From the NCBI GenBank assembly GCA_900542945.1, contig UQPI01000001.1, positions 6,215-70,214 on the forward strand: DNA of 64,000 bases, read 5' to 3'. Each line of letters starts with the position of its first letter. Positions within the stretch are counted from its first letter, which is position 1. The stretch comes from an uncultured Collinsella sp. GTDB taxonomy: Bacteria; Actinomycetota; Coriobacteriia; Coriobacteriales; Coriobacteriaceae. The notes beneath the pieces were generated by a model. The model was not told the DNA's origin. It saw only the letters and a list, made by a program, of their open reading frames with translations, and made no database searches. The translations under genes and the position numbers were made by a program. Positions 1-59,918 of this stretch are shown in pieces.

Positions 1-3000
1 CCCAACCCGTTTTATTGGACGAGTGACGGCTACGGCGTACTCCGAAACACGTTTGCAGAGGGTTCCTACGACTTCGGTTCCACGGACTCATCGACGGTCA
101 CGACTTTGCACAGCGAGAATGAGTTTGATGCCTACTACTTCGTGGCGACCAACGAGGGCGCTTCGAACGTGGCAACCGAGATGCTGCGGGACTACTACAA
201 GGTGACCGGTAACCCGGTACTGCTGCCCGAGTACGGGTTCTACCTTGGTCATCTTAATGCCTATAACCGTGACGGCTGGTCAACGACCTCGGGTCAAAAG
301 AAGTGGGAGACCAAGGGCAGCAAGTCCTCGAGCGAGAAGGGCGACGTTAAGTACGAGTCTGGCATGTCGACGGGCTACAAGCTCGACGGCACACTTGCGG
401 CCGAGACGCTCAACGGTGAGGGCCCTACGGTTGATACCGAGAACATGAAAGCGACCGATTTCGACCGCCAGTTCTCTGCTCGTCAGGTTATCGATGACTA
501 CGAGGACAACGACATGCCGCTCGGTTGGTTCCTGCCGAACGACGGCTACGGCGCCGGCTATGGCCAGAACGGTTACTACAAGACCGGCGGCGTCAACTCC
601 GACGGAACGAGCTCGGCTGACCGTCTTAACGCTGTGCGTGCCAATGTCGACAACCTTAAGAAGTTCACCGAGTATGCCAACTCCAAGGGTGTGAGCACGG
701 GCTTGTGGACCCAGTCCAACCTTGAGCCCGACAGCAACTCCGAGACCCCGTGGCACCTGCTTCGCGACTTCGACGCCGAGGTCAAGACGGGAGGCATCTC
801 TACCCTTAAGACCGACGTCGCCTGGGTTGGATCTGGCTACTCCTTTGGTCTTAATGGCATCAAGACAGCTTATGACACGGTGACGACCGGCGCCAACAAG
901 CGCCCCAACATCATCACACTCGATGGTTGGGCCGGCACGCAGCGCTTTGGCGGCATTTGGACCGGCGACCAGTATGGCGGTAACTGGGAGTACATTCGCT
1001 TCCATATCCCCACGTATATCGGTCAGAGTCTTTCAGGCAACCCCAACATCGGCTCCGACATGGACGGCATCTTTGGCGGCGACCCCATCATCTCTGCGCG
1101 TGACTACCAGTGGAAGACGTTCACGCCCTCTATGCTCGACATGGACGGTTGGGGCACCTACCGCAAATCGCCCATGACACACGGCGATCCCTACACAGGC
1201 ATCTCGCGCTTCTACCTCAAGCTCAAGGCGCAGCTCATGCCCTATATCTACACGAGCGCGGCCTCGGCGGCCAACATCGACACGGGTAACGGCGATGCCG
1301 GCCTGCCCATGATCCGCGCCATGCTGCTTTCCGACAACTCCGAGTACGCCGCAAGCACTTCGACGCAGTACCAGTATATGTTCGGTGAGAACTTCCTAGT
1401 GGCACCGGTGTATCAGGATACCCAGGCAGACGAGAACGGCAACGACATTCGCAATGGGATTTACCTCCCCAACTACGGCACCGACGAGAATCCCACCATC
1501 TGGATCGATTACTTCTCGGGTAAGCAGTATCGCGGCGGCCAGGTTCTCAACAACTACGAGGCTCCGCTTTGGAAGCTGCCGCTGTTTGCGAAGGCCAACG
1601 CTATCGTGCCGATGTACGCCGAGAACAACAACCCCGAGGCCGTGAGCGACACCAACACCAAGGGTACCGACCGCAGCCAGCGTATCGTCGAGTTCTTCGC
1701 CACCGAGGGCGACGGCACCTTTACGCAGTACGAGGACGACGGCTCCTCCATCGAGAACAACACGACTGAGGACGATTCCTACGGTACGATCGACAATATC
1801 TCCTACGGTGAGCATGTGAGCACCGTCTACAGATCCAAGGCCGCAGGCGGCACCGCGACCTTCACCGCCGAAGCCTCGCAGGGTGGCTACAACGGCTACG
1901 ACTCCAATCGCACCACGACCTTCGTGGCCAACGTGTCCGCCAAGCCCATGAGCGTCGTCGCCAAGAACGGCGGATCCGCGCTCAACGTGGTTGAGGTCGA
2001 CTCGCAGGAGACCTTTGACACCGCGACCCCCGAGGCCGGCCAGGCGGTCTACTTCTACAGCGAGACCCCTAACCTCAACCACTACGGCAGCGATGTGGAC
2101 GGCACCGAGGCCGAGCGGGGCGAGAGCTTTAACAACACCAAGATCACCACGAACCCCAAGGTCTACGTCAAGTTCGCGAAGACCGATGTTGCTGCGGCGG
2201 CGCAGACGCTCGAGCTGGGCGGTTTCGTGAACGCCGACGCCACGCTCACAGCCGATCGCCTCAACGAGAACCTCTCCGCACCCACGAACCTTGCTGCCCC
2301 CGAGGACGTCACGACCCCAACGAGCATCAAGCTCACCTGGGGAAAGGTCGATGGTGCTACCTCCTACGACCTTAAGGTCGACGGCACTGTGTTTGCCGTG
2401 GGTGATGCGGCCGAGTTCACGCACACCGACCTCGCCTACAATAGCAAGCACACCTACCAGATTCGTTCGCGCAACGCCGAGGGTTACTCCGCCTGGAGCG
2501 ATGTGCTCGAGGCGAACTCCGCACTCGATCCGTGGCGGAACGTCCCCGACGCCGAGGAAATCACCTGGGAGGGCTCACTTTACGGCAGCCATAAGGCCGA
2601 GCTTGCCTTCGACCATGAGTTCCAGTCGGGCGACGGCGGTTTCCACTCCGGTGGCAACGATCTAGGCAAGGCGCTTACCGTTGACTATGGACGCGCTTAC
2701 AAGCTCGATAAGCTCGAGTACTATCCGCGCGATGACGCCGGCAACGGCACTGTGACCAAGATGCGTGTTGAGACGAGTCTCGATGGCGTCCACTGGACGA
2801 GCCAGGAGGTCGATTGGGCACGTTCCGCTGATTGTAAGACGGTAGCGTTTGACGGCACCGTGGCCGCCCGTTACGTGCGCATGACACCGCTCGCCTCGGT
2901 CGGCAATTTCTTCTCCGCGTCCGAGATTGCCATCTACAAGACCGACGGCACGGATGGCTTCGCCGTGGGCTCCAACCTCAACAAGGCCACGATCTCCGAC

Positions 3001-5790
3001 GGAGACTACTCCAACATGAAGAACTATCTGGGCCTCGAGAACCGCGAGCCCGATACCCCGACGTTCGGTTCGCAGATCCGCGACCACTTCGCCGACCTCA
3101 ACGATAACGGCGTTTACGACGTCTACGATTACTCGTTCACCATGGCGGGTCTTGACGGCGGCACTAAACAAAAGGGCAAGGTCGCAGGTTCGCTCGCGGT
3201 GATTCCGAGCAAGACCGAGGTCGAGGCCGGTGATGAGATCACCGTTGATGTCTATGCGGCCGACGCCAAGAACGTCAACGCCCTGGGCGCTCTCGTCAAC
3301 TTCAAGAGCGACCAGTTCGAGTTTGTGTCCGAGAGCATCGCGCAGGACGGCTCGACTGCCGGCATGGAGAACCTGTCTCGCGAGAAGGTCCAGTTCGCGG
3401 ACAGAACGCAGACTATCAATCTCGCCTTTGCCAACCGCGGCGATGGCAAGCTCTACAACGGTACCGGCGCGGTGGCGAGTTTCAAGCTCAAGGCCAAGAC
3501 CGCCGGCAAGGTCGAACTGCCCTCGACATCTTGGCTCATCGGTCCGGCATGCGACGCACTTGAGTTTGCGAGCGACGGCACGGTGACGATACCGGATGTT
3601 CCTCAGCCAACGGTCGCCGAGTACGGTCAGGATGCCTTCAACATCACGATGACCAACGATGAGCTCACGACCGACGACGGGACCAACGTCGAGAAACTTA
3701 TCCAGCAGAAGAGCTATAACGCGCTGTTCGATAATAACGAGGGCGACAACGGCTTTGAGTTCCTATGGAACTGGAGCGGCAACTGGGACAGCGAGGGTAA
3801 GCTTCCGAGTTACGTGAAGCTTCCCACCACGATGACATTCGCATTTAAGACGCCGTCGAAACTCGATAGTGTCGAGGTCGTTAACCGCAACGGTGGCAAC
3901 GGAACCGTGCAGAAGATCAAGGCTGTCGTGACGTTCGAGGATGGCTCGACCCAAGAGTTCGCGGGCGGGGAGTACGATTCCTTCCGGGCTCGCTACGCCT
4001 TTGGCCTCTCTGCCGAGAACAAGGGCAAGAAGGCGACCAAGGTCGAGGTCACGCCGCTTGAGGCATCGGGTGACCAGATGCTCACACTGCGTGAGGTCAA
4101 CTTCAACTACACGCAGGGTGTCGAGGCCATCGAGGGTGTCGAGCTAGGCAAGAACCAGACCGAGTTCTTTGAAGGCGACGTTACGCTCGTCGACGCCAAG
4201 GCCACGCCTGAGAGCGCCGGCTACCCCTATGTGACGGTCGAGAGCTCCGACCCCTCTGTGGTAAGCGTCTCCGCTGTTCAGGCTGGCGATAGCGTGAGCT
4301 ACTACCTGCGTGCCAACAAGGCCGGCAAGGCAAAGATCACGGTGGCGTCGGTACTCGACCCCTCCAAGACCGCATCCTATGAGGTCGAGGTCAAGGCTGG
4401 TGTCGATACCTCTGCGCTCGTGGCAGCGCTTTCCAAGGCCGCGGGCTACAGCGAGTCCGTCTACACTAAGGATTCCTATGCAGCTCTCACCACTGCGGTC
4501 GAGGCGGCTCAGAAGCTCCTCGACGGCGGCCAAGGCAGCTATAGCAAGAAGGATGTCGCAGACGCCACAGTCAAGATCGAGAAGGCAATCGACGGCCTCA
4601 AGATGCGCCCTGTCGATGAGAAGATTCTCATCAACACGCCCGAGAACCGCAAGAACGTCAAGGTGGCCCGCTTCTCGAGTGAGGCCGACTACGAGGGCAG
4701 CAACGCCGTCAACGCTCTCGACGGCGACGAGCGGACGCTTTGGCACAGCGACTGGGCCCATGGGACCGGTATGCCCCAGTATCTGAGTGTCGACCTGGGC
4801 CGCGACTACGATCTCACCGACGTTACATTCCTGCCGCGCCAGGACGGCGGCACTAACGGCGATATCTTCGAGGCCGAGATACTGGTCTCCGACACTGCCG
4901 ACGGTTATGAGATGGGCACCGCCGCGTCGATGGGTACGTTCGCCTTCGACAACGACGGCCGCGTGCTCACCGACCGTGGCGACTGGAAACAGATGAGCTT
5001 TGGCGCCGCGCGCGGTCGCTACGTGACCGTCAAGGTGATTCACGCCGGCGGAGGCGACGTTGATGCCTACTGCAGCATGGCAGAGCTCAAGTTCTACGGT
5101 ACGGCCGTCCCCGATCCGGTGGCGAAGGATGATCTCGCTACCGCGATCGAAAAGGTTGATGCCGAGGTTGCTGCCGGCGACCTCAAGGCCGGTGACTACA
5201 CCGAGGCCTCCTGGACGGCGCTCGAGAACGCCCTGGCGAGCGCCCGCGCCATCTTGAGCGACGAGAACGCCACGCAGGACGAGGTCGACCATGCGCTCAG
5301 AGCGCTCGAGAGCGCCCGCGGCGCGCTCGAGAAGACCCCGGTGGCCCCGGTCGAGAATCCGACTAAGAAGCAGCTCAAGGCCCTGGTCAAGCAGGCGAAG
5401 GAGACTGACACCAGGGGCAAGACGGCCGAGTCTGTCAAGGTCCTGACGGATGCCATTACCTACGCCGAGGACGTCTTGGGTGATGAGAATGCTTCCGACA
5501 CCCAGATCCAGGCGGCCTATGGCCAGCTCAAGCTGGCCATTGAGAGCCTCAAGGATGCCGATTCCGGCAACCAGGGCGGCTCGGGCAACCAGGGTTCCGG
5601 CAATGGCTCGAACGGCGGCAACCAGGCGGGCAAGCCCGCAGGCGACAAGGCCCAGGGCAGCAAGAAGAACGGTTCGGCGATTCCCAATACCGGAGACCAG
5701 ACGGCGGCGACCGTCGCGACCGTCGGTGGTCTTGGCGCCATCATCGCCGCAATCGGCGCTTTCTTCCATCGTCGCAGCAAGGCTAAGTAG
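1..5790 (+). CDS. Large cell-wall-anchored multidomain glycoside hydrolase, 5' partial (GH31-like, possibly alpha-N-acetylgalactosaminidase type), with FN3, two F5/8-type-C (CBM32-like) and FIVAR modules and an LPXTG-like IPNTG sortase anchor
   Basis: Frame 1 is open from base 1 with no signal peptide at the first Met, so the gene continues upstream of the window. The motif GGIWTGDQYGGNWEYIRFHIPTYIGQSLSGNPNIGSDMDGIFGG fits the GH31 acid/base region (HWTGDN...GxDIxGF). F5/8 discoidin signatures are present (NALDGDERTLWHSDW...). An FN3 module is present (LTWGKVDGATSYDLKVDG). FIVAR-like helical repeats are present. The C-terminus is IPNTG, then a hydrophobic stretch, then RRSKAK, a sortase sorting signal. 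Confidence 0.7.
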   Translation, partial: PNPFYWTSDGYGVLRNTFAEGSYDFGSTDSSTVTTLHSENEFDAYYFVATNEGASNVATEMLRDYYKVTGNPVLLPEYGFYLGHLNAYNRDGWSTTSGQKKWETKGSKSSSEKGDVKYESGMSTGYKLDGTLAAETLNGEGPTVDTENMKATDFDRQFSARQVIDDYEDNDMPLGWFLPNDGYGAGYGQNGYYKTGGVNSDGTSSADRLNAVRANVDNLKKFTEYANSKGVSTGLWTQSNLEPDSNSETPWHLLRDFDAEVKTGGISTLKTDVAWVGSGYSFGLNGIKTAYDTVTTGANKRPNIITLDGWAGTQRFGGIWTGDQYGGNWEYIRFHIPTYIGQSLSGNPNIGSDMDGIFGGDPIISARDYQWKTFTPSMLDMDGWGTYRKSPMTHGDPYTGISRFYLKLKAQLMPYIYTSAASAANIDTGNGDAGLPMIRAMLLSDNSEYAASTSTQYQYMFGENFLVAPVYQDTQADENGNDIRNGIYLPNYGTDENPTIWIDYFSGKQYRGGQVLNNYEAPLWKLPLFAKANAIVPMYAENNNPEAVSDTNTKGTDRSQRIVEFFATEGDGTFTQYEDDGSSIENNTTEDDSYGTIDNISYGEHVSTVYRSKAAGGTATFTAEASQGGYNGYDSNRTTTFVANVSAKPMSVVAKNGGSALNVVEVDSQETFDTATPEAGQAVYFYSETPNLNHYGSDVDGTEAERGESFNNTKITTNPKVYVKFAKTDVAAAAQTLELGGFVNADATLTADRLNENLSAPTNLAAPEDVTTPTSIKLTWGKVDGATSYDLKVDGTVFAVGDAAEFTHTDLAYNSKHTYQIRSRNAEGYSAWSDVLEANSALDPWRNVPDAEEITWEGSLYGSHKAELAFDHEFQSGDGGFHSGGNDLGKALTVDYGRAYKLDKLEYYPRDDAGNGTVTKMRVETSLDGVHWTSQEVDWARSADCKTVAFDGTVAARYVRMTPLASVGNFFSASEIAIYKTDGTDGFAVGSNLNKATISDGDYSNMKNYLGLENREPDTPTFGSQIRDHFADLNDNGVYDVYDYSFTMAGLDGGTKQKGKVAGSLAVIPSKTEVEAGDEITVDVYAADAKNVNALGALVNFKSDQFEFVSESIAQDGSTAGMENLSREKVQFADRTQTINLAFANRGDGKLYNGTGAVASFKLKAKTAGKVELPSTSWLIGPACDALEFASDGTVTIPDVPQPTVAEYGQDAFNITMTNDELTTDDGTNVEKLIQQKSYNALFDNNEGDNGFEFLWNWSGNWDSEGKLPSYVKLPTTMTFAFKTPSKLDSVEVVNRNGGNGTVQKIKAVVTFEDGSTQEFAGGEYDSFRARYAFGLSAENKGKKATKVEVTPLEASGDQMLTLREVNFNYTQGVEAIEGVELGKNQTEFFEGDVTLVDAKATPESAGYPYVTVESSDPSVVSVSAVQAGDSVSYYLRANKAGKAKITVASVLDPSKTASYEVEVKAGVDTSALVAALSKAAGYSESVYTKDSYAALTTAVEAAQKLLDGGQGSYSKKDVADATVKIEKAIDGLKMRPVDEKILINTPENRKNVKVARFSSEADYEGSNAVNALDGDERTLWHSDWAHGTGMPQYLSVDLGRDYDLTDVTFLPRQDGGTNGDIFEAEILVSDTADGYEMGTAASMGTFAFDNDGRVLTDRGDWKQMSFGAARGRYVTVKVIHAGGGDVDAYCSMAELKFYGTAVPDPVAKDDLATAIEKVDAEVAAGDLKAGDYTEASWTALENALASARAILSDENATQDEVDHALRALESARGALEKTPVAPVENPTKKQLKALVKQAKETDTRGKTAESVKVLTDAITYAEDVLGDENASDTQIQAAYGQLKLAIESLKDADSGNQGGSGNQGSGNGSNGGNQAGKPAGDKAQGSKKNGSAIPNTGDQTAATVATVGGLGAIIAAIGAFFHRRSKAK

Positions 5791-8075: not shown

Positions 8076-9305
8076 CTACACGCGGGTGGCATCCTTGGGA
8101 CTCATGGTCATACTCTGGAAACGGTTTTCCATGTACTCGTTATCGAAATACTTGCCGTAGAACTGCGCGACGGGAATATCCGGCTCCGTGCCGTTGACGC
8201 GCTGGTACCAGTAGTCGAGCGACTGCAGCGTCATGACGCCGTCGACCAGCATAATGACGGTAAAGATGACGGTAGCCGAGTAGCGGCTCTTCCACGGAAT
8301 CATGTTGATGAGCTTGAGCAGCCTCGGCAACAGCAGCTTGATCCAGATAAGGCCACCCAGGCCCCACAGGCAGGCAAAGCCCGTGCAGGTGCGTCCGCCC
8401 GTAAGGACGGCGAGTGGGTCGGGCATGCCGAACAGCTTCATGTGCGAGTAGCTCCACGAGACCACGCCAAATGAGGTCTGCATAAACCAGCCCACGAACA
8501 CCTCAAAGCTCGCGCCGAGCACAGCGCTTACCAGGAAAATGATGATGGGGTTCTTTTTATAGAAGCGGTTGAGCACCATGGTCATGAGTACGGCGCCAAA
8601 GCCATAGATGGGGCTGAAGGGACCAAACAGCATGCCGGCGCGGTTCTGGTAGACGCCCGGGTCGTCGACTGTCATATGCCAGATGTCCTCGGCGATCAGG
8701 CCGAGCACGCAGCAGACGAAGAATACCCAGAACAGGTTGAAGTAGTTGAGCTTGATGTAGCCCTCGCCGGTTTCATCGCGGCCGAGCATGCCCTCCGCCG
8801 CGGCGTCACGGTCGAGCATCTCCTGCAGGCGGCGCTGCAGTTCGCGCTCCTGGCGCAGCGTGGGGTCGACGGTTGCCGAAAGTGCAACGAGGATGCCGAG
8901 CTGGATCGCAGGACGCAGCAGGAAGGGCCCGATGCCCTGGAGCATCACGTCGACCAAAAGCTCGACGACGGTGAATGCAATAAGGATGTAGGACAGGCGG
9001 GCGGCGTTGCGGCGCTGGTTTTTGATAAGGTCCAGGCCAAAGATGATCAGGATGACGGCACTTGCCGCAGAGAGCATGATGCCGGCGACGATGAGTCCAA
9101 CCGAGACCAGCATATTGTCGCCGAGCTTTTCGGCGGCGTTGCCGTTGATGAGCGCGGTGATGACCTGCCACATAAAGGCAGCGACCGACGGGAGTGTGCC
9201 CACGCCGGATAGGATGCACAGGACGGCGTACACCTTAATGATGAGGGGGATCTTCTTGACCTCCGTGGCGCTGGGGACGCTGGGGTCGAGTTCGTTTCGA
9301 TCCAT
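8076..9305 (-). CDS. Polytopic membrane protein; C-terminal half resembles the putative ABC-transporter type IV family (PF06541-like)
   Basis: Multiple TM helices. The FWVFFVCCVLGLIAEDIW segment fits the F..YSF.GW..E hallmark of PF06541. Confidence 0.4.
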   Translation of the reverse strand: MDRNELDPSVPSATEVKKIPLIIKVYAVLCILSGVGTLPSVAAFMWQVITALINGNAAEKLGDNMLVSVGLIVAGIMLSAASAVILIIFGLDLIKNQRRNAARLSYILIAFTVVELLVDVMLQGIGPFLLRPAIQLGILVALSATVDPTLRQERELQRRLQEMLDRDAAAEGMLGRDETGEGYIKLNYFNLFWVFFVCCVLGLIAEDIWHMTVDDPGVYQNRAGMLFGPFSPIYGFGAVLMTMVLNRFYKKNPIIIFLVSAVLGASFEVFVGWFMQTSFGVVSWSYSHMKLFGMPDPLAVLTGGRTCTGFACLWGLGGLIWIKLLLPRLLKLINMIPWKSRYSATVIFTVIMLVDGVMTLQSLDYWYQRVNGTEPDIPVAQFYGKYFDNEYMENRFQSMTMSPKDATRV

Positions 9306-23578: not shown

Positions 23579-24208
23579 TTAGTGCTTGCCGTTGGCGGAG
23601 GCGGCACCGTTGACATGGTCGCGGGCATAGACCACGCCGTGCACGATGGCGAGGCCGGCGGCGTCGGCCGCGCGGGCGCAGGTGTCCTGGAAATCCTCGG
23701 CCTCGCGGGCGCGCAGCTGCTTGAGCACGTAGTCGGCCACGGCCATCTTGCCGGGAGGGTTGCCGATGCCGGTGCGGATGCGGCTAAAGTCGCGGCTGCC
23801 CATCTTGTCGATGATGGAGCGCAGGCCGTTGTGACCGGCATGGCCTCCGCCCACCTTGACGCGCACGTCACCGGCGGGAATGTCGAGCTCGTCGTGGATG
23901 ACGAGCAGCTCCTCGGCCTTGATCTTGTATTCGTGGCAGAGCTTGGAGATGGGGCCGCCCGAGGTGTTCATGTACGACTGCGGCTTGACCAGCACAATTT
24001 GGCGCTTGCCGCCCTCTTCCTCGGCATCGTTGATATTGATGAGCGCGACCTCGGCGCCGGCCTGGTTTTTCCAGTACGTGACGCCGGCCTGACGGGCCAG
24101 CTCGTCAATCGCCTTAAAGCCGGCGTTGTGGCGGGTCTCGGCATATTCCTCGCCCGGGTTGCCAAGCCCGGCAACCATGCGAATCTTAAGCGGCTGTGCA
24201 GCTGCCAT
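23579..24208 (-). CDS. pth: Peptidyl-tRNA hydrolase
   Basis: RMVAGLGNPGEEY...TRHNAGF...GGHAGHNGLRS signatures. An RBS precedes the second in-frame ATG. The ORF-track N-terminal extension is unlikely to be real. Confidence 0.85.
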   Translation of the reverse strand: MAAAQPLKIRMVAGLGNPGEEYAETRHNAGFKAIDELARQAGVTYWKNQAGAEVALININDAEEEGGKRQIVLVKPQSYMNTSGGPISKLCHEYKIKAEELLVIHDELDIPAGDVRVKVGGGHAGHNGLRSIIDKMGSRDFSRIRTGIGNPPGKMAVADYVLKQLRAREAEDFQDTCARAADAAGLAIVHGVVYARDHVNGAASANGKH

Positions 24209-24323
24209 GTTCATCCTTTCGTTGATTTGTCGCCTGCTATGGTGAGCGACCCTGTTGCCGCTGTCAAATGGAGGGCAATTGAGGTTGTTTGGGGGCGTTT
24301 GGACGGCCGTCAAAATCCGAGGT

Positions 24324-24525
24324 GGACAGGTAGTTCAGATACGTATAAGTTCTGAGGACTCGAAGTACTTAATTCGATGCCGATACGTTGTTTTGGAGCT
24401 TTAATTGGTCCATATGACGCTGTTTTGAAGTCTACCCTGCCTTCAAATAGGGCGAATGGTATAGAGATAACTGCAAAACAGTCTAATTCAATGTGTCCAT
24501 TTATACGTATTTGAACTAACTGTCC
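24324..24525. mobile_element. MITE-like element 1 (~200 bp) with 26-bp terminal inverted repeats GGACAGGTAGTTCAGATACGTATAAG
   Basis: Left TIR at 24324-24349. The reverse-complement copy (3 mismatches) is at 24500-24525. Confidence 0.7.
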
Positions 24526-24559
24526 AGCCCTGCTCGACGGCGCACGGGTGATTCGCCGT

Positions 24560-25687
24560 TTAGACCGGCGCGAGGCCGATTCCGGCCCGCAGAGCGTTGA
24601 GCCAAGCGGCCTGACGTTTGCGATAACCCTTGATGCGATAGCGGAACCGAACCCCAGTAAGTCGATGCATCGTCTGGGCGAAGGCTTCGAGCGCAACAAG
24701 GTCTTTCATTTGGTCGCGATTGATAACCAGGACGTGGATACCCATGGCTTTAAGGCCATTGTTGCGATTGCCATCGTGGATGCGAGCATTTTGAAGCTCA
24801 TGCCCAATTCCGTTGTATTCGTTGTCGACTCCTGCAGCTGGGCAATATAAGTCGCAGATGGCATAGGGGATGCCGGAGGACATGTTGACCGCAAGAGTGT
24901 CGAAGTCGATTCGATGGTTGAGTAGCAGGCCTCCCATGGGCAGGCTGCAACATCCGAATCCGCCAAAGCGCATGGGCGCTCCGAGAACGGCAAACATTAG
25001 GGATTCGGCTGGGGATGCAGATCCGGGTCGGGCGAGATTGACTGCCGTGCGAAACGAGGCGTAGGAGCTACTTTTGGCAAACTGTGCGACTGCTTCGAGC
25101 TCATTTATGGTTGTGGCAGGCTCGCATTTGTAGTGCGCCTGTTCGTAGCGGGTTTCGGTCTGCTGTTCGGCCGCCGACTGGTCGCCCCGGCAATCGAGGT
25201 CGTCCATCGCTTCGTAGCCATCGCCCTTGGGCCAGATGTCGTCATAGGCAATGGGGTATGTTGCCCCGGGAGGAAGGGAGTAGGTTCCGAGCAGTTCCAT
25301 GAGAAGCATCAAGGTTTTGGCGACTGATTCATTTTTGGAACAAAGCATGGCTGTCATGGCAGGAGACGTTGCGTAGATGTCGGCCTCGACGTGCATAATT
25401 GCACCTTCAGGAAGCGGAGCGGAGAGAATATGCTGAAGAAGTCGCTTGTCGGGGCGTCTGTTGTCTTCGTCTGAAACGAGAAGATCGAGCAGTTCGGAAT
25501 CAGCTTCATTCCAGGCATCGAGTATCGAAAGTGCGCCAAAGTCTATCGCGTCATTATTGGGAATGCAGCTAGCCAAGGCCTGTGCTTGCTGTTCACTATC
25601 AACGGAGTCCCAGGGTAGGGCAGAGTACGCCCGTCGTGCGCGACGAATTGCGCGGAGGGCGGAGAGATGTGAAATCACGGTCGTCAT
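24560..25687 (-). CDS. Hypothetical protein (375 aa) with no recognisable domain, inserted between pth and prs
   Basis: Long ORF with consistent codon usage. No family assigned by inspection. It is bracketed by the two TIR elements. Confidence 0.55.
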   Translation of the reverse strand: MTTVISHLSALRAIRRARRAYSALPWDSVDSEQQAQALASCIPNNDAIDFGALSILDAWNEADSELLDLLVSDEDNRRPDKRLLQHILSAPLPEGAIMHVEADIYATSPAMTAMLCSKNESVAKTLMLLMELLGTYSLPPGATYPIAYDDIWPKGDGYEAMDDLDCRGDQSAAEQQTETRYEQAHYKCEPATTINELEAVAQFAKSSSYASFRTAVNLARPGSASPAESLMFAVLGAPMRFGGFGCCSLPMGGLLLNHRIDFDTLAVNMSSGIPYAICDLYCPAAGVDNEYNGIGHELQNARIHDGNRNNGLKAMGIHVLVINRDQMKDLVALEAFAQTMHRLTGVRFRYRIKGYRKRQAAWLNALRAGIGLAPV

Positions 25688-25851
25688 AGCTATAACGTAC
25701 TAAGTTGGCGGCAGAATGCGACCGCCATACCGTTCTTTTCGCTCAGCGGGGCGCTGCGCGCCATGAACGGCTGGGTGTTATGAAATCGGTGGAATCGGTT
25801 GAGGGGATTGCAGGAAATTGAGCTCTGCCGCGAAGGTTGACGATAGCTACT

Positions 25852-26061
25852 GGACAGTTAGTTCAGATACGTATAAGGCGGCGGGCGTTCGAGGCGTTTC
25901 TAAGGGGCTTCGAGGGCGATTTGAGGGTAAATATGCGGCGGTTGTACTCGAAAACGATGAGCATTGGGCGGCATGGCATCCGCCGGGGAGCTCAGAACGC
26001 TCCGAACGGCCCTTTGGGGCTTTAAAAAAATACGTATCTGAACTAATTGTCCAGGGAAGGT
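25852..26061. mobile_element. MITE-like element 2 (~210 bp) with the same 26-bp TIRs and unrelated internal sequence
   Basis: GGACAGTTAGTTCAGATACGTATAAG at 25852-25877. Its reverse complement is at 26036-26061. The internal sequence differs from element 1. Confidence 0.7.
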
Positions 26062-26139
26062 TGGCGAGGGATAGAAAAAGGGTCGGAAGCGAGCTTCCGA
26101 CCCTTTAAAAGCATCAAAGATGATGCGATGCGCGTTGGA

Positions 26140-27126
26140 TTACAGTGCGAAGTCGCCGCCGACGAGCGTGGAGACGGGCTCCTCGTGGTAAACGGCGGAG
26201 ATGGCCTGAGCGAACTCCTCGGCGACCGAGATGGTCTTGATCTTGCCGCCGACCTCGACGGGGATGGCGTCGGTGACGACGCACTCGACGATGGGGGCAT
26301 CGTTCAGGCGCTCGATGGCCGGACCGGAGAAGATGCCGTGGGTGGCGCAGACGTAGATGTCGCCGGCGCCCATAGCCTTGAGCTCCTTGACGTTGGCGCA
26401 CAGGGTGCCAGCGGTGTCGATCATGTCGTCGTTGATGATGCAGGTCTTGCCCTTGATGTCACCGATGATGCCCATGACCTCGGCGGCGTTGTGGCGCGGA
26501 CGGCCCTTGTGGGCGATGGCCAGGTCGCAGCCGAGCATGTCGGACAGCTTCTTGGCGGCCTTGGCGCGACCCACGTCGGGGGAGACGACAACCAGGTTGT
26601 CGGTGTCGAAGTGCATGTCGTTGTAGTACTGGCCAAACAGCGGCAGTGCGGACAGGTGGTTAACCGGGATATCGAAGAAGCCCTGGATCTGACCCTGGTG
26701 CAGGTCGAGGGTGATGATGCGGTTGACGCCGGCGCGCTCGAGCAGGTTGGCGACGAGGCGGGCGGTGATGGGCTCGCGCGGGCCGGCCTTGCGGTCCTGG
26801 CGGGCATAGCCGTAGTGGGTGATAACGGCGGTGATGGAGCGGGCGGATGCGCGCTTGGCAGCGTCGGTGGCGATGAGCAGCTCCATGAGCATGTCGTTGA
26901 CGTTGCCGCCGGCCACGGACTGAATCAGGAAGACGTCGGCGCCGCGGACGGTCTCGTCGTAGCGGGCGTAAATCTCACCATTGGCGAACTGCTTTAGCGT
27001 AAGGCCCGAAAGCTCGACCCCAAGGTACTCAGCAATCTTCTGAGCGAGGGGACGGTTGGAGGAACCGGAATACACGCGGATGGACTTGCGCATATTCTCC
27101 GACTTCTCGGGATCATTAATCGGCAT
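26140..27126 (-). CDS. prs: Ribose-phosphate pyrophosphokinase
   Basis: RVYSGSSNRPLAQKIAEYLG start. PRPP-binding loop VLVDDMIDTAGT-like (IINDDMIDTAGT) is present. Confidence 0.9.
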   Translation of the reverse strand: MPINDPEKSENMRKSIRVYSGSSNRPLAQKIAEYLGVELSGLTLKQFANGEIYARYDETVRGADVFLIQSVAGGNVNDMLMELLIATDAAKRASARSITAVITHYGYARQDRKAGPREPITARLVANLLERAGVNRIITLDLHQGQIQGFFDIPVNHLSALPLFGQYYNDMHFDTDNLVVVSPDVGRAKAAKKLSDMLGCDLAIAHKGRPRHNAAEVMGIIGDIKGKTCIINDDMIDTAGTLCANVKELKAMGAGDIYVCATHGIFSGPAIERLNDAPIVECVVTDAIPVEVGGKIKTISVAEEFAQAISAVYHEEPVSTLVGGDFAL

Positions 27127-28980: not shown

Positions 28981-29817
28981 ATGTCGCATCCGGCTGTGCC
29001 GGCCCTCTACATGGTGCTGACGCTGGGGCTCACCATGTTCTCGATGCAACCGGTGCTGATCGCGCTGTCGCTTGCGGGCGGGCTGGCGTATGGATTTGCG
29101 ACGCGTGGGGCTGCCCGCACGCTGGGCGCACTCCGCTGGCAGCTGCCGGTGATTTTGATCGTTGCGGTGCTCAATCCGCTGTTTAGCGCCTCGGGCTCGA
29201 CGGAGCTGTTCCGTATTGGTATGCGCGCAGTGTATCTGGAGAGCATGGTATACGGTCTGTGCATGGGCGGGCTGTTTGTGGCGAGCGTGCTGTGGTTTGA
29301 GGCGGCGGCGTCGATGCTCGAATACGATAAGGTGCTCGCGCTGCTGGGTAATACCGCACCGGTGATTGCGCTCATGATCTCGATGTGCATGAGGCTTATC
29401 CCGCAGTTTTTGCGCCGCGGTCGTACGGTGCTGGCGGTGCAGGATGCGATTGATGTGCCGGGCCGCGCGCCGGCCGACCCCGTACGCTCGCGCCTGCGGG
29501 CGTCGAGCGTGTTGATGGGCTGGGGCATGGAAGATTCGCTGGAGCGCGCGGACGCGATGCGCTCGCGCGGGTGGGGTGCCGCGACGCGTCGTACGACGTA
29601 TGCGCGGTATCGACTGGGGCGCAGCGACGTTGCCGCGCTGGCCGGGCTCGCACTGTTTGGTGCTGCCGCGGTGGCGGTGGCGTGGACCGCGACGACGCAG
29701 TATTCGTTTTATCCGCAGCTCTCGGTGCCGGCGCCGTGGCTGGGCTATGTCGTGTACGCTGCCTGGATGATGCTGCCTTGCGCGTTGCACGCGATTGATG
29801 AGAAGAGGTTTGGCTGA
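28981..29817 (+). CDS. ecfT: Energy-coupling factor transporter transmembrane component
   Basis: CbiQ/EcfT-like multi-TM protein immediately upstream of ecfA. The start is placed at the Met before the first TM helix. Confidence 0.6.
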   Translation: MSHPAVPALYMVLTLGLTMFSMQPVLIALSLAGGLAYGFATRGAARTLGALRWQLPVILIVAVLNPLFSASGSTELFRIGMRAVYLESMVYGLCMGGLFVASVLWFEAAASMLEYDKVLALLGNTAPVIALMISMCMRLIPQFLRRGRTVLAVQDAIDVPGRAPADPVRSRLRASSVLMGWGMEDSLERADAMRSRGWGAATRRTTYARYRLGRSDVAALAGLALFGAAAVAVAWTATTQYSFYPQLSVPAPWLGYVVYAAWMMLPCALHAIDEKRFG

Positions 29818-31460
29818 TGGCTCGGTTGGATAGGGGCCCGGTGTCGGGCGCGGCGTGCGGCCCGGATATTCCGGCGATTGAGGTGCAGGGCCTTGGTTTT
29901 GCCTATCCCGGGGCCGAGGCACCGGTGCTCGAGGGGCTTGATTGGCGTGTTCCCCAAGGTGCATTTGCGCTGCTTGTTGGCGGTACCGGTTCGGGTAAGT
30001 CGACGCTGCTGTCGCTGCTCAAGCCCGAGATCGCTCCGGCGGGCGAGCGCACTGGCGATACGCGCGTGCTGGGCGAGAACGTTGCCGACATGGACGTCCG
30101 GGCGTCCGCGGAGCGCGTGGGCTATGTGTTCCAGGATCCCGAGAACCAGATCGTGTGCGAAACCGTGTGGCACGAGATGGCGTTTGGCCTGGAAAACTTG
30201 GGGCTAGCACGTGATGAGATGCGCCGTCGCGTAGCTGAGACCAGCTATTTCTTTGGTCTGGAGGACTGGCTTCATCGCGATACCGATACGCTTTCGGGCG
30301 GCCGCAAGCAGCTGCTGTCGCTTGCCGCCGTCCTGGCGCTGCGTCCGCGTGTGCTGCTACTCGACGAGCCCACGTCTCAGCTCGATCCCGTTGCCGAGAA
30401 GAATTTTCTGCACGCGCTGTTTCGCGTGAACCGTGAGTTGGGCTGCACGGTTGTTGTGGCTACGCATCAACCGCGCCCAATGCTCGAGTATGCGACGTGT
30501 GCGTACCGGATTGAGGACGGTCGCGTGCGCGAGGTGGCGGATATGGCTTCTTTGGGACGCCGAGAATCACTGTTTTCCGACGACATGTTGGGGTGGGGTG
30601 CCGTCCGATGTGCAAAAAACGGAGTATTCAGCAGGCGTGAGGACAATTTGGGCTCTCTGGAGCCGCCCGGGGACGTATCGAGCGCGAAAAAAAGTTCGAA
30701 ATTGGACAAATCGTCCGAATTTGTGGCGCAAACGTCGCTCGAGAACGGCTCGGAAGCCTTCCCGCGCACGGATGGGAGCAGAATACTCCAAAAAATGTAC
30801 GGCGGGTCGGCTACCACCCTGGCAGGGAGCTGGTTTCGCTACGATCGCGCGGGCGGTTGGGTGCTGCGCGGGCTCGACGTGGCGTTTTCGGCCGGTGCGG
30901 TGCATGCGATCGTGGGCGGCAACGGATGCGGTAAGTCGACGATGCTTTCGGTGCTGGCCAAGACTGCCAAGCTGCAACGTGGTCGTATGGTGCGCGGGGC
31001 GGCCTCGGCTGCGCTGCTGCCGCAGAACCCCAAGGCCCTGCTGGTTGCCGAGACGGTGCGCGACGAGCTGATGGAATGGGCTTCGGCCTGCGGGTACGAC
31101 GAGGCTATGGCGCGGGAGCGCGCGGCGAGTCTGGGGCTCGCGGACTTGGGGGAGCGCCACCCCTATGACCTTTCGGGCGGACAGCGTCAGCTGCTTGCGT
31201 TGGCAAAGCTGCTGTTGATCGGCCCCGAACTGCTATTGCTCGATGAGCCCACCAAGGGTTTGGACCTGGCCAGCCGCCGCATCATCGCCCGCGCCCTGCG
31301 CGACCATGCGCAGGCTGGCGGCACCGTCGTCATGGCGACGCACGACCTAGACTTTGCCGAGCAGGTTGCCGATGACATTTCCATGATGTTTGATGGCGAG
31401 ATCGCCTGCATGGAGCCGCCGACCGACTTCTTTGCCGACAACGTGTTTTATAGGGCGTGA
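29817..31460 (+). CDS. ecfA: Fused duplicated ECF transporter ATPase (EcfA-EcfA')
   Basis: Two ABC cassettes with Walker A GGTGSGKST and GGNGCGKST and two LSGG signatures. Confidence 0.85.
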   Translation: MARLDRGPVSGAACGPDIPAIEVQGLGFAYPGAEAPVLEGLDWRVPQGAFALLVGGTGSGKSTLLSLLKPEIAPAGERTGDTRVLGENVADMDVRASAERVGYVFQDPENQIVCETVWHEMAFGLENLGLARDEMRRRVAETSYFFGLEDWLHRDTDTLSGGRKQLLSLAAVLALRPRVLLLDEPTSQLDPVAEKNFLHALFRVNRELGCTVVVATHQPRPMLEYATCAYRIEDGRVREVADMASLGRRESLFSDDMLGWGAVRCAKNGVFSRREDNLGSLEPPGDVSSAKKSSKLDKSSEFVAQTSLENGSEAFPRTDGSRILQKMYGGSATTLAGSWFRYDRAGGWVLRGLDVAFSAGAVHAIVGGNGCGKSTMLSVLAKTAKLQRGRMVRGAASAALLPQNPKALLVAETVRDELMEWASACGYDEAMARERAASLGLADLGERHPYDLSGGQRQLLALAKLLLIGPELLLLDEPTKGLDLASRRIIARALRDHAQAGGTVVMATHDLDFAEQVADDISMMFDGEIACMEPPTDFFADNVFYRA

Positions 31461-46949: not shown

Positions 46950-49900
46950 ATGAGAACGGTAAAGCGCATACTCGCAGAGTTCATGACGGTGGTCATGGTG
47001 CTCCAGGCATGCTCGCCCACGGTGGCCGCCGTGGCGGCCGGCTGGCAGAACATTTCGAGCGAGATTGCCGCCGCGTCTGCGGAGGCATCGGATGCAGCCG
47101 AGAGCGGTGAGACCAACGGCGACGCCGCGAATGGGTCTGGGTCGAGTGATATCGGCGCCGCGGGTGACGGTGCCGAGGATGGTGCTGCGAAGGACGACGC
47201 TGCAACGGGCGATACTTCCGATAGTGCTACGGGTTCCGATTCTACGGGCGACCAGACGGAAGGCGATGATACTGCTGGGGATGCCGCCGCTGATGATGCC
47301 GATCAAAATGCTGGTGATGAGGCTTCGGAAGACACTGCGGCCCAGGCGGGTGCGACGATCACAGATTTGAATAAGCTTGTCGAGCTGCTCAGGGCTAATG
47401 GTGCGGAAAACGTCGAGCTCAAAGACGACGGGAGCGGAATCCGAAGCCTCGATGTCAAGTCGTCGGAGGCGTTCGCCGTCCTGTCTAACGCCGACGCTTC
47501 GCTTTACTATGATGCGCAGATCAAGGTTATCATCACGGGCGATGCGAAGCTCACCGAGTCGGCTAAGAACGGCATGTCTTTCCAGGGCCTTGGCAGTGAT
47601 GAGCATCCGTTTGAAGGCAAAATCTATAGGTCGTTGAATGGCGTTGATAGCCCTGTTGAGCTTACGTCTAACCGGACGGTTTTCAATAACTTCAAACTGA
47701 CTGACCAAAACAATACGGTCAAGATAAAGTGGATAGGCGCAACTACCTATAGCGCGCCGATGGTCGCTACGAAGGTCAGCGGTGGGGGCAAGACGCTCAA
47801 CGCTGTGGTCAACATCGCAGATCCCGTAGGCACCGGCGGGACGGATACGACTTCCGCTCTGACGGCGCCCCTTTTGGGTGAGGCGATGGGTGACCTTACT
47901 ACAGAGGTCACCTATGGCCCTGCCGGTTCTCTCGAGAAGCTCAACGTAAATGCAGCGGGAAACATCGGTCTTTTAGCGAATACAGTCAAGAGCGGAACCT
48001 TTACGGTGGGGTCTGTTAAGTTTCCCGATAGCCTTGCCGCGGGCGGTGTCGTCAAGACGAGCTCCGGTAATGCCGGTCTGCTCGTAGGCACGGTCGAGGA
48101 TGGCGCGACTCTAAACGTCGGCACCCTTAATGTTCCCGCTGTTACCGTTCAGTCTGAAAGCGGTTCCGCCGGTGGCGTCGTGGGCCTCGTCGGTTCGAAC
48201 ACAGGCGCCACAGTCAAGGTCACGGAGGCTCTCGACCTGCACATGCTCACCGTCAAGGGCACCACCGCCAGTGGCGGCTTCATCGGTAAGGCGACCAAGC
48301 TCGCGCTGGGCGCGGACAACAAGAAGTTCACCTGTCCCGCCAACGTCGGCGATAAGAACAGCAAAAGTTCCGGCGGCTTCATCGGCGACGTTAGTTTTGC
48401 CGGCCCGGTCGAGTTTGCCAACAACGACCAAATCGATACGGGCGAGGGCGTGAATCTTGGCCAAAGTGGGGACACGGGCGCGGGCGGCGTGTTCGGTCTC
48501 CTGGACACAACGAACGGCGATGTCGCAATATCAGGTGGCTTGTATACTAGCAAACTGGTGACGGGCTCCAGCTCCATCTATGGCGGTCTGGTCGGTAGAG
48601 TTCAGGATGTGACCAACACAGAGAAGTCGAACAACACCCTTCATATAAAGACGGGTGCCGCGGGCAACCGCTGTTCGGTTGATACTACATGCAGCGTCGC
48701 GCCACGACTGGCAGGAGGCCTGGTCGGCTGGGTGGCAAAGAGCAACAATACTGGAGGCGTTGTAATCGTTGACGGCGCGGACGTCACGTGCCATTCTCCA
48801 AAAGCCAATGGAAAGAACTGCGGGTTTGGCGGTGTTGTTGGCGCCTTGGATAGCGGCTATAGCGTGGGCGGGCGTTCGCGTTTTGGAATTCTGGACTGCG
48901 GGGACGTTCGCGTTGAAACTGATAAAAACGAATCAATCGCATGTGGTGCCGGAATTGTGGGTTCGGCATGGAACGGCGTCTTGCGCTTGCGTGGGACTAC
49001 CGATTTATCCGATTGCAAGCTCGAGGCCAACGGTAATACCAGCCAAATTCTTAGATCCTTGGATGGATGCGCCCCATTGGTGTTTGCTCTAGGTTCAGGC
49101 TCGGATGCTGAGGCAACGAACGATAATTATTGGCTTTACAAACGTCCTGCTGCGGCGAGGATCGATGACCTGACCTATAACCAGGTTATCCGCCTGACCG
49201 GAGAGGAGGGCAAGCTCAGCAAGGATCTTATTAAACTTGATGAAAGCACCTTTTATCAGCCGTTGTGCAATCTGAGTGGTGCTCCAGATGCTGGCAGCAG
49301 TGCTGGCTACTCTTGGGGTAAGCAGCTACGGTCCCAAAATGGTGACGGGAAGTCGGGTACATACCTCATTAATGATGCGGATACATTCGCATGCATTGCC
49401 ATGACGGTCCAAACGAACGGCTACTTTGGCGGTCTATTCGGCATCGGCACGGCTAACATTACGAGCTGGTATGGTAATAGTGGGAATGCTATCTCAATTA
49501 CTTCCGACATTGACCTGCGAGGCACAGGCCTTGAAGGTCTTGCATGTGATGGGTCCGGGCGAGTTAACGCTTTCGTAGGGGCTGTCGAGGGAAACCATCA
49601 TACCGTTACCTTGGCGATTGGCGAACCTTACGGTACGCGCAACGGCAATGCGCTTGGCGCAAACGATTCGACTGAAGGGAACGGCAAGATTTACCGTCAC
49701 AGCCGTCTGGGCCTCTTTGCCGCTATCGGCGGTGGCGCGACGGTGAATAACCTTACCGTCGATGGCGTTATGAAGTTCGATAACGGCTTAGGCGTCGACG
49801 CTGGCTCGCTTGCGGCAACTATCACTGGCAAGGCAACACTCAACGGCGTTACGTGCAAGCCGAAAATCACCTGCGATGATACGTTCGGCAACGATGTCAA

Positions 49901-57860: not shown

Positions 57861-57915
57861 CGAAGCCAACTAGCTTCGCAAAGGGGGCGGCAACCACCCG
57901 GTGGCCGCCCCCTTC
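57861..57915 (+). terminator. Terminator hairpins after the giant gene
   Basis: AAGGGGGCGGCaaccacccggtGGCCGCCCCCTT plus small hairpin GAAGCCAACTAGCTTC. Confidence 0.65.
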
Positions 57916-57920
57916 AACTC

Positions 57921-58036
57921 CCCACCATCTTTCCAGCTTTCCACTTAACTTAACACTTAAGGTGGAAAGCTGGGTAGAAAGCTGGAAAGTTAGGTGGAAA
58001 GCTGGTAAGTTAAGTGGAAAGCTGGAAAGTTGGGAG
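57921..58036 (+). repeat. ~115-bp repeat A: palindrome CCACCATCTTTCCAGCTTTCCAC..GTGGAAAGCTGG followed by tandem GTGGAAAGCTGG(A/T)AAGTT iterons (direct copy at 59549-59644)
   Basis: About 90% identical copies flank gene 58044-59513 in direct orientation. Copy B lacks one iteron. Confidence 0.85.
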
Positions 58037-58043
58037 GTTCGGC

Positions 58044-59513: not shown

Positions 59514-59548
59514 GGCTGTTCGTTGTTCTTGCTTCGGCTTTCCGGCTT

Positions 59549-59644
59549 CCCACCATCTTTCCAACTTTCCACTTAACTTAACACCTAAGGTGGAAAGCTG
59601 GGTGGAAAGCTGGAAAGCTAGGTGGAAAGCTGGAAAGTAAACGG
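59549..59644 (+). repeat. Repeat B, direct copy of the iteron-containing repeat
   Basis: See repeat A. Followed by a G9 tract at 59671-59679 and an AT-rich stretch. Confidence 0.85.
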
Positions 59645-59918
59645 AAGACTGACATGCTAGCTCGGAGGCTGGGGGGGGGTTAATAATTGCACAAACCATA
59701 CCAAGCCAAACAAAAAGATATCAATCTGGTTGGTAAAACACCCTCACTGAGCTGCGAGCTAACTAGCTGCGTAAATAGAACGTAAAGAAATGTCGCAAAT
59801 AAATGGCAAATGCCCAGATGCCGCCGTTGCTATTTTCAATTAACTGCTACGCGCGAACAGCAAAATGCTACTATCTAACATGCACGTAAGAAAGCAGATT
59901 AACGGTTAAGGCTAAGAA

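Follow-up and report, generated by a model that had tools for sequence, protein, structure and literature searches.

A putative Vsr/DUF559-type nuclease gene and its inverted-repeat elements between prs and pth in Collinsella: a candidate partnership with pre-bent DNA

Why is the gene of a 375-aa protein placed between two housekeeping genes of a gut bacterium, and why is it bracketed by two elements of about 200 bp that have the same ends and different interiors? The locus was found in a contig of an uncultured Collinsella sp. (assembly GCA_900542945.1, contig UQPI01000001.1, positions 6,215 to 70,214 of the forward strand), and we call this whole stretch of 64,000 nucleotides the window. The order of genes on its minus strand is glmU (starting at 27318, upstream of prs), prs (26140-27126), the gene in question, which we name X (24560-25687), and pth (23579-24208). 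We find that the ends of such elements follow the lineage of the neighbouring gene, and that their interiors are alike in the phase of their A/T tracts rather than in their sequence. The product of X is, by family profile and predicted structure, a nuclease of the Vsr/DUF559 type whose N-terminal part resembles AbiEi. The explanation that we prefer, and to which we give about an even chance, is that X binds both arms of an element and closes a pre-curved loop, in a nuclease-repeat partnership similar to that of REPIN/RAYT.

Element A (24323-24526, 204 bp) has an AT-rich interior and lies 34 nt downstream of the stop codon of X, upstream of pth, with arms at 24323-24349 (plus strand) and 24500-24526 (minus strand). 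Element B (25851-26053, 203 bp) extends from TGG to CCA, has an interior with 60% GC and lies on the prs side, upstream of X; its arms are at 25851-25877 (plus) and 26027-26053 (minus). All four arm copies described in an earlier note on this DNA, made from its letters alone, are present on either side of the gene. The arms measure 26-27 nt, are 92-96% complementary within a pair and are 152 nt (A) or 155 nt (B) apart. The arm sequence of these X-type elements is TGGACAGNTAGTTCARATAYGTAT. Shuffled sequence yields no arm match (0 expected), and the 64-kb window holds no fifth copy. The two elements, X, a prs terminator proper to this haplotype (a hairpin with a perfect 14-bp stem at 26077-26106, minus strand) and the pth leader make up the full prs-pth intergenic block (24209-26139, minus strand), which we regard as the accessory cassette and across which the GC content drops from about 0.65 to 0.43-0.60. 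No target-site duplication was found at the flanks of A, B and 11 representatives of the solo elements described below. No significant RNA fold was found for the interiors of A and B (z -1.1 and -1.3), an Rfam scan of the region gave no relevant match at E <= 1, a scan for promoters of the sigma-70 type found no promoter-like site in or beside either element, and the terminator scan of the region was negative.

What do these interiors have in common? They had been described as unrelated. This is correct for their sequence, since the interiors of the elements have no common sequence and range from 41 to 80% GC, but they do have in common a strong, phased A/T pattern. In element B, A/T tracts can be read roughly each 10.6 bp. 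The AA/TT dinucleotides of the interiors have a period of 10.5 bp (pooled z of 23), with z > 3 in 16 of 25 independent elements against 3.8% of the control windows (z is 5.3 for A and 8.7 for B), and their frequency ranges from about 0.05 to 0.32 depending on the helical phase. This phase lies 0.62 turn from either end (R 0.85, p about 1e-8), and the phasing survives the trimming of 28-45 nt per end. When element length is measured from the outer TGG to the outer CCA, 27 independent lengths group at about 172.5, 182.5, 194, 204, and 215 bp, with a best-fit period of 10.6 bp (R 0.69, Rayleigh p about 2e-6, 0 of 5000 random sets). The elements have both features expected of a loop between paired operators, namely a spacing of integral turns and a phased A/T signal of the interior in register with the arms. 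The length quantum and the AA/TT phasing are properties of duplex DNA, that is, a predicted helical phasing of the arms and a predicted intrinsic curvature. Because the lengths come in whole helical turns and the A/T tracts keep a fixed register, the DNA would be pre-curved, with the inverted arms on the same face and close to each other. We take it as probable that each element of about 200 bp forms a loop of pre-bent DNA, with two matching binding sites that close it. As the conserved property would be the shape of the duplex and not its sequence, ordinary repeat finders see only unrelated cargo. An AA/TT periodicity of 10.5 nt (z up to 12) also occurs at 30500-30900, within the gene of a 547-aa ABC ATPase (29817-31460), where it is probably the codon periodicity of amphipathic helices and not DNA curvature.

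Are the elements restricted to the prs-pth locus? A genome scan with the arm pattern returned at least 120 stretches from at least 111 genomes, nearly all of them Collinsella, with about one stretch per genome. The arm matches are nearly all paired (at least 144 pairs, 130 of these 144 measuring 200-203 bp), and clustering by interior sequence gives about nine families among the matches listed. Two families flank X: c0, which is element B and occupies the same position at 43 loci at least, and c1, which is element A and was found at a minimum of 41 loci. Families c2-c6 and c8 are solo elements in X-free intergenic regions. The search of relatives for the repeat proposed in the earlier note places the same arms at no fewer than seven other orthologous intergenic loci of Collinsella, and the idea of a family of shared ends around different interiors is borne out. 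Among the places of the solo elements are the gaps that separate an htrA-like gene from ligA and a GH4 from an MFS gene, and sites near hypD, rmuC, and nuo/mrp; the genes beside them have no common functional theme. Across dozens of species, each interior family stays at a single orthologous locus. Families c7 and c9 share the site of c1, with conserved arms and interiors that are only about 50% identical; a swapping of cargo at this locus was considered and rejected, as the interiors align as diverged orthologues. Hopping of X between solo elements found no support, either in a check of the lineage-2 loci for prs/pth or in one of the lineage-1 loci for the clpB/luxS context, and X was never seen at another solo locus. 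No interior is flipped relative to its flanks in the assembled sequence of about 100 genomes (0 of about 115 comparisons, among the matches listed), and wherever a lineage-1 locus includes prs or pth as well, X points the same way as they do. A single transposase was seen; it is of the IS256 type, and its gene is an unrelated insertion in L083.

Some solo elements are accompanied by further DNA. At the c5 locus of L016 (226-1694), cargo of 1.23 kb, with an XRE-like fragment and a DUF4143 open reading frame (ORF, 714-1595), comes after the solo element and is itself followed by a 32-nt duplicate of the right arm and its flank (405-436 matches 1663-1694). In L081 (1316-3085) and L097, the c2 solo element, which lies between the htrA-like gene and ligA, has an insertion of 1.77 kb directly beside it; the insertion holds small ORFs, one of them with a weak DUF2975 match. 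The c5 site is empty in the genome of the window, with 7 bp (57915-57921) versus 276 bp in L019, which include a 203-bp element. Beside this empty site, the window encodes a 499-aa protein (58014-59513, plus strand) with SLFN_AlbA_2, HATPase_c_4, and winged-helix domains. Its gene is flanked by direct copies of about 96-110 bp (57918-58033 and 59546-59641) that are palindromic and rich in GGAAAGCTGG, so that 57915-59659 has the same palindrome-gene-palindrome layout around a gene unrelated to X. An ORF of 3635 aa (46950-57857, plus strand) ends just before the c5 site, and its composition suggests a giant surface or repeat protein.

The homologues of X tie the gene to the elements. Those at 87, 79, 54, 53, 39, 34, and 29% identity all have an element bounded by inverted repeats 20-100 nt past their stop codon, and this link holds at the same or at different genomic sites. 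A second, upstream element is often present, many homologues have an element only downstream of their own stop codon, and this downstream element is the most conserved partner of the family. The architecture is kept at 39% (L215), 34% (L214), and 29% (L216) identity. The arms differ between lineages and fit a deep consensus, TGGC(A/G)...ATATG(T/A)AC: the arm is TGGCAGGTTTTTACGGATATGAATGATT in L004, TGGCATAATGATTCAGATATGCACGA in L132, and TGGCTAAAAATGTCGATTT in L133, with variants of their own in L131, L130, and L134. The L133-type arm, which represents a second lineage, is found in human gut metagenomes both beside its X homologue and at X-free loci, in elements of three or four families.

Paralogues of X have arms of their own. 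Paralogue Y, 30% identical to X, is encoded in C. aerofaciens TSDC17.2-1.1 (L227, NZ_OY725717.1 785690-792667, coding sequence 2962-3984), and its element (4014-4240), which begins 30 nt past the stop codon of Y, is found at 10 BLAST places in the 900-kb record. The X-type arm is absent from this 900-kb C. aerofaciens record (NZ_OY725717.1), outside which lie prs and the c2, c3, c5, c6, and c8 loci. Paralogue Z (345 aa, L080:1711-2748, minus strand) comes from contigs on which the X-type solo element c2 lies about 5 kb away. It is bracketed on both sides by tight palindromes of its own, 65-77 bp long, with arms of 26-33 nt and a spacer of 11-13 nt (L080:1602-2914; also L124:5701-7005 and L072:6968-7028), and the Z arm is GGCAGACCATCACAACATTCGA. 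Hence, the arm sequence goes with the lineage of X, Y, or Z and not with the host, and it is mainly because the arms follow the adjacent nuclease lineage that X, Y, and Z appear to be their cognate proteins. The arms are most likely cognate half-sites of X, whose part as the arm-binding protein we infer from this linkage and from co-variation. In L007, all four arms have changed together, and changes within an element are compensatory at five or more stem positions, which keeps its arms matched. The arm mismatches have a G-U strand bias that amounts to three events only and is uninformative.

What kind of protein would bind them? The 375-aa protein had been said to lack a recognisable domain, and searches of Pfam, NCBIfam, PADLOC, and PDB sequences with X alone return nothing usable apart from a match to Pfam DUF559 (PF04480) that scores 12.5 bits (E 0.14), below the gathering threshold of 20.6 bits. 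The fold was resolved only by a family profile and a predicted structure, in line with the remote-homology check suggested for it, and it is that of a nuclease. The X family is large (1541 clusters at 50% identity with E <= 1e-3, 364 at 1e-10), with members mostly of about 320-370 aa. Among 40 relatives, 12 match DUF559 at E < 0.01, the best at 1.3e-7, and several score 18.6-19.9 bits. In a 40-sequence alignment, E130, S224, E227, G241, G242, E289, D304, and R307 are invariant and D278 and H295 nearly so; the profile made from it matches the DUF559 structure 3hrl and the catalytic domain of I-Bth0305I. The structural match to the Vsr, DUF559, and I-Bth0305I catalytic domains, together with the conserved acidic and histidine residues, is that expected of the Vsr/EDxHD type of PD-(D/E)xK fold. 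The predicted protein consists of an N-terminal part resembling AbiEi (about 1-150), a disordered linker (155-180), a helical middle, and a C-terminal Vsr/EDxHD-type PD-(D/E)xK nuclease domain (about 245-330) with the residues D278, E289, H295, D304, and R307. The matches to AbiEi and Rv2827c would fall in the N-terminal part, because these two proteins have no nuclease domain. AbiEi binds inverted repeats of about 23 bp (PMC7319586), and I-Bth0305I, a homodimer whose DNA-binding part is separate, has a footprint of about 60 bp (PMC3239194).

X has no transposase domain and no Y1_Tnp match, and it matches no model of a defence system. It also lacks the combination of an AbiEi_4 domain and an adjacent AbiEii nucleotidyltransferase that marks the AbiE type IV toxin-antitoxin systems. 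A phage origin was considered and dropped, as a single-protein search of viral contigs found no relative. The median ratio of nonsynonymous to synonymous divergence (dN/dS) of X is 0.11 (42 pairs), which indicates strong purifying selection. Many database entries (P0084-P0095) are N-terminally shortened forms of X of 278 aa, 91-98% identical to it and several with dozens of member sequences, and X is broken into two pieces in L096 (2325-3420). Given these entries and the split gene, some alleles may be decaying or using another start codon.

Is the cassette a recent insertion? We compared 10 Collinsella contigs that encode a Prs identical to the one of the window, and found X in five of them. 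In the other five, including a 2.31-Mb contig (CP024160.1), pth comes directly after prs, at a distance of 224-243 bp; the order of prs, rplY/ctc, and pth that the earlier note took as the usual one was not seen there, as rplY/ctc is not found at this place. The prs-pth DNA of these alleles holds no arm or arm-like sequence, only a long hairpin terminator, which differs from the prs terminator hairpin of the X-carrying alleles and is much longer. Some of the spacer hairpins are unusually long (L222:5020-5085 and L226:5010-5120, with stems read as about 25-45 bp), and their sequence varies among the alleles without X. The homology between the two kinds of alleles breaks off precisely at the stop codon of prs and sets in again at the ATG of pth, which makes the entire block between the genes (24209-26139) an alternative allele. 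The comparison revealed neither a footprint nor a target duplication.

Homologues of X at 87, 79, and 52-57% identity sit between prs and pth or directly upstream of pth. Because homologues of 52-87% identity hold the same prs-pth site, the X-carrying state is ancient and the insertion not recent. The earlier view of a composite insertion therefore needs to be divided: the block does behave as a unit of insertion or deletion, with X and both elements missing together from 5 of the 10 contigs, but it was not inserted recently. Similarly, a repeat unique to the locus and a gene conserved in place had been named as signs of an ancestral arrangement, and of these the gene is indeed old at its site, while the repeat is not unique to it. 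The synonymous divergence (dS) of X is 0.56-1.6, against 0.12-0.17 for the adjacent prs in the same genome pairs, a 5-9-fold difference. This implies either that the alleles of the cassette are much older than their flanks, or that prs is homogenised or codon-constrained. The position of the module is not invariable. In L134 (7830-8897, protein P0116, 53% identity), X lies between pth and prs, inverted relative to both, and retains only the downstream element (8923-9103), and in L132 and L133 the module is found at a different genomic site.

How could the nuclease and the elements act together? In the explanation that we prefer, an X dimer would clamp both arms, which would close a loop of about 150-190 bp and place the nuclease domains at its base. 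The solo elements, whose arms are the same, would be additional sites of X, and the tight palindrome of Z would be an unsplit version of such a site. X would work there as a two-domain, sequence-specific nuclease. The partnership of X and its elements would be inherited mostly vertically and would be long-lived, as in REPIN/RAYT, and homologous recombination in the conserved flanking genes prs and pth would add or remove the cassette as a whole allele. Breaks induced by X at the arms would lead to their homogenisation and, occasionally, to the capture of arm-adjacent DNA. We infer both the formation of the loop and the cutting by X at the arms; an occasional breakage and repair at these places would fit the joint change of the arms in L007, the compensatory changes, and the insertions in L016 and L081/L097. 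Possible roles are selfish persistence, regulation by looping, or a mutualism of the REPIN/RAYT type.

Several observations weigh against this explanation. In L031 and L070, both arms of element A have changed from CG to TT and the arms of element B keep CG. Because the arms co-vary more tightly within than between elements in these cases, a homogenisation or pairing of arm with arm is needed beyond the protein that they would share. Individual elements are also dispensable, since the genome of the window carries X and lacks the solo element c5. Moreover, a PD-(D/E)xK nuclease alone cannot rejoin or transfer strands, so that any mobility would need host repair. Finally, the fixed positions and the conserved shape of the solo elements suggest a function at the level of the host, which the explanation does not name.

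The closest alternative has the same step of binding and looping and differs only in its purpose. X would be mainly an AbiEi-like DNA-binding regulator that represses or insulates its neighbours (itself, pth, ligA, and others) by means of small loops, with a nuclease that is secondary or inactive there. Helical phasing and curvature are indeed classic signatures of repression loops, the solo elements stand at fixed intergenic positions and often upstream of a gene, e.g., ligA, and the strong purifying selection on X would be explained, as would its fold match to AbiEi, a protein that binds inverted repeats (PMC7319586). We nevertheless regard this as unlikely, considering that the catalytic-type residues are invariant across the X family, that neither A nor B has a sigma-70-like promoter in it or beside it, that many homologues have only the downstream element, and that the system is optional and its neighbour genes are without a functional theme.

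Less probable still is that the elements are invertons, i.e., phase-variable segments flipped by a global invertase encoded elsewhere, with X as a mere neighbour or flipping itself between the inner arms. Repeats of 26 bp inverted around some 150 bp, with the same repeat at several loci, would be in line with this, phasing and bending would aid the synapsis of two close sites, and X is inverted relative to prs and pth in L134. Milman et al. (PMC9881135) found DUF559 and 'endonuclease domain-containing' proteins to be enriched among predicted inversion targets, an enrichment that the inverted repeats described here may explain. Yet the roughly 115 comparisons listed, from about 100 genomes, contain no flip, and the orientation of X is constant in the lineage-1 loci that include prs or pth. 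No recombinase is encoded at the locus or in its neighbourhood, the sigma-70 scan found no promoter-like site in A or B, and it is the lineage of X, Y, or Z, not the host, that the arms follow.

We see little chance that the elements are ordinary miniature inverted-repeat transposable elements (MITEs), as their earlier description as MITE-like implied, or parts of a composite transposon, moved by a transposase encoded elsewhere with X as a trapped passenger. Their terminal inverted repeats, small size, and intergenic positions, and the presence/absence polymorphism of the unit, are those of such elements, and many DDE elements have TG...CA ends, as these do. They depart from ordinary MITEs because they lack target-site duplications and a known transposase, because their copies have no interior homology, and because they occupy fixed orthologous loci, each family a single one across dozens of species, at which the interiors diverge fast. 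In addition, the alleles with and without X differ over the entire intergenic region with no footprint, a linkage of element and gene down to 29% protein identity with changing arms is not predicted for a passenger, and transposition leaves the phase-locked A/T pattern unexplained.

It is very doubtful that the arms pair in transcripts as 26-bp stems flanking the X mRNA (as RNase III sites, stabilisers, or small RNAs): the compensatory changes at five stem positions or more, the three common arm mismatches, which are G-T on one strand, and the action of Vsr-like RAP/FASTK domains on RNA (PMC11879112) would agree with it, but for the interiors there is neither a significant fold (z -1.1 and -1.3) nor an Rfam match, the 10.6-bp length quantum and the 10.5-bp AA/TT phasing are properties of the duplex, and the G-T wobbles are three events only, on the strand antisense to the operon. 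Nor do we find much to recommend an integron-like origin, in which the elements would be attC-like sites of a recombinase and a cassette of X plus one element would have entered a pre-existing solo element to give two direct elements: the site-gene-site layout, the imperfect palindromes conserved in structure rather than sequence, and the cargo beside or between arm copies in L016 and abutting an element in L081 recall integrons, but there is no integrase at the locus, no R-box-like core can be read in the arms, the allele without X has no solo element and X is never at another solo locus, and a site such as attC, acting as a folded single strand, does not predict helical phasing of the duplex.

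How does the X system compare with those already known? The combination of a Vsr-type nuclease with an AbiEi-like part, cognate arms, and length-quantised curved interiors matches no close system. We know of no repeat family built as a pre-bent loop with two matching arms. In the full-text literature that we searched, no paper connects DUF559-type genes with repeats that flank them or are dispersed, and no paper deals with MITEs of Collinsella. The Correia elements of Neisseria and the BIME/RIP (REP-IHF-REP) elements of E. coli resemble the present ones in being small and intergenic, with inverted repeats of about 26 bp and a bent or bendable centre. These families comprise many near-identical copies, with TA duplications in the case of Correia, whereas here the copies are few, their interiors unrelated, their lengths quantised and their flanks free of duplications, and there is a cognate gene. 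Dispersed invertons, such as the Mpi regulon of Bacteroides and those of the PhaseFinder type, are likewise sets of several segments of about 170-200 bp with the same inverted repeat. The differences lie in the lack of flips among the comparisons listed above, of a recombinase and of a promoter-like site, and in arms that follow the nuclease lineage. The operators of AraC, GalR/HU, and LacI, which act by looping, have two sites on the same helical face, periodic spacing, and curved intervening DNA. In contrast to them, the sites described here are dispersed and travel with the gene as a cassette, and the nuclease domain of X is apparently active. In the AbiEi operators, a winged-helix protein also recognises inverted repeats, of about 23 bp (Beck et al. 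2020, PMC7319586). The free-standing homing endonucleases, of which I-Bth0305I is an example (Taylor et al. 2011, PMC3239194), have in common with X a presence/absence polymorphism at a conserved site, here with five alleles of each kind. However, X lies outside introns and phages, no cleavage site was identified in the empty allele, and it is not a feature of homing to be bracketed by, and tied to, dispersed copies of the presumed sites.

The greatest likeness is with REPIN-RAYT (Bertels & Rainey 2011, PMC3116915), where inverted doublets of a short repeat stand on both sides of a nuclease-type gene present in one copy and are also scattered between genes, each gene lineage or paralogue has its own repeat, and vertical inheritance is long. 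The two systems differ in the protein, since RAYT is an HUH/Y1 (IS200/IS605-like) transposase and X a predicted Vsr-type nuclease with an AbiEi-like part. They also differ in copy number, with tens to hundreds of doublets for RAYT and here two flanking elements and a few solo ones, as estimated from locus counts per assembly, none of them a complete genome. Instead of the compact loop of a hairpin, the elements described here have phased, duplex-shaped spacers of about 120-165 bp with no significant fold, and their copies are not homologous to one another. If X does clamp such loops, a widespread family of 'hypothetical' or 'endonuclease domain-containing' proteins (1541 clusters) would gain a DNA target and a testable mechanism, and there would be bacterial repeats conserved in the shape of their duplex (helical phase and curvature) and not in sequence. 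X would then be, besides the RAYTs, a second nuclease gene that persists for long with its own intergenic repeats, which bears on the question of whether such partners are selfish, domesticated, or mutualistic. For the strains of this abundant human gut genus, the arms and the polymorphism of the cassette are resolving markers. We put forward, as a serious possibility though less likely than not, that the X family defines a new class of nuclease-repeat partnership, in which each gene maintains a few shape-encoded elements, pairs of inverted half-sites joined by an A/T-phased, curved loop of quantised length whose sequence drifts freely. If this were true, REPIN/RAYT would have a second counterpart, independent of it in mechanism, with repeats that are under selection for the geometry of their DNA rather than for its sequence.

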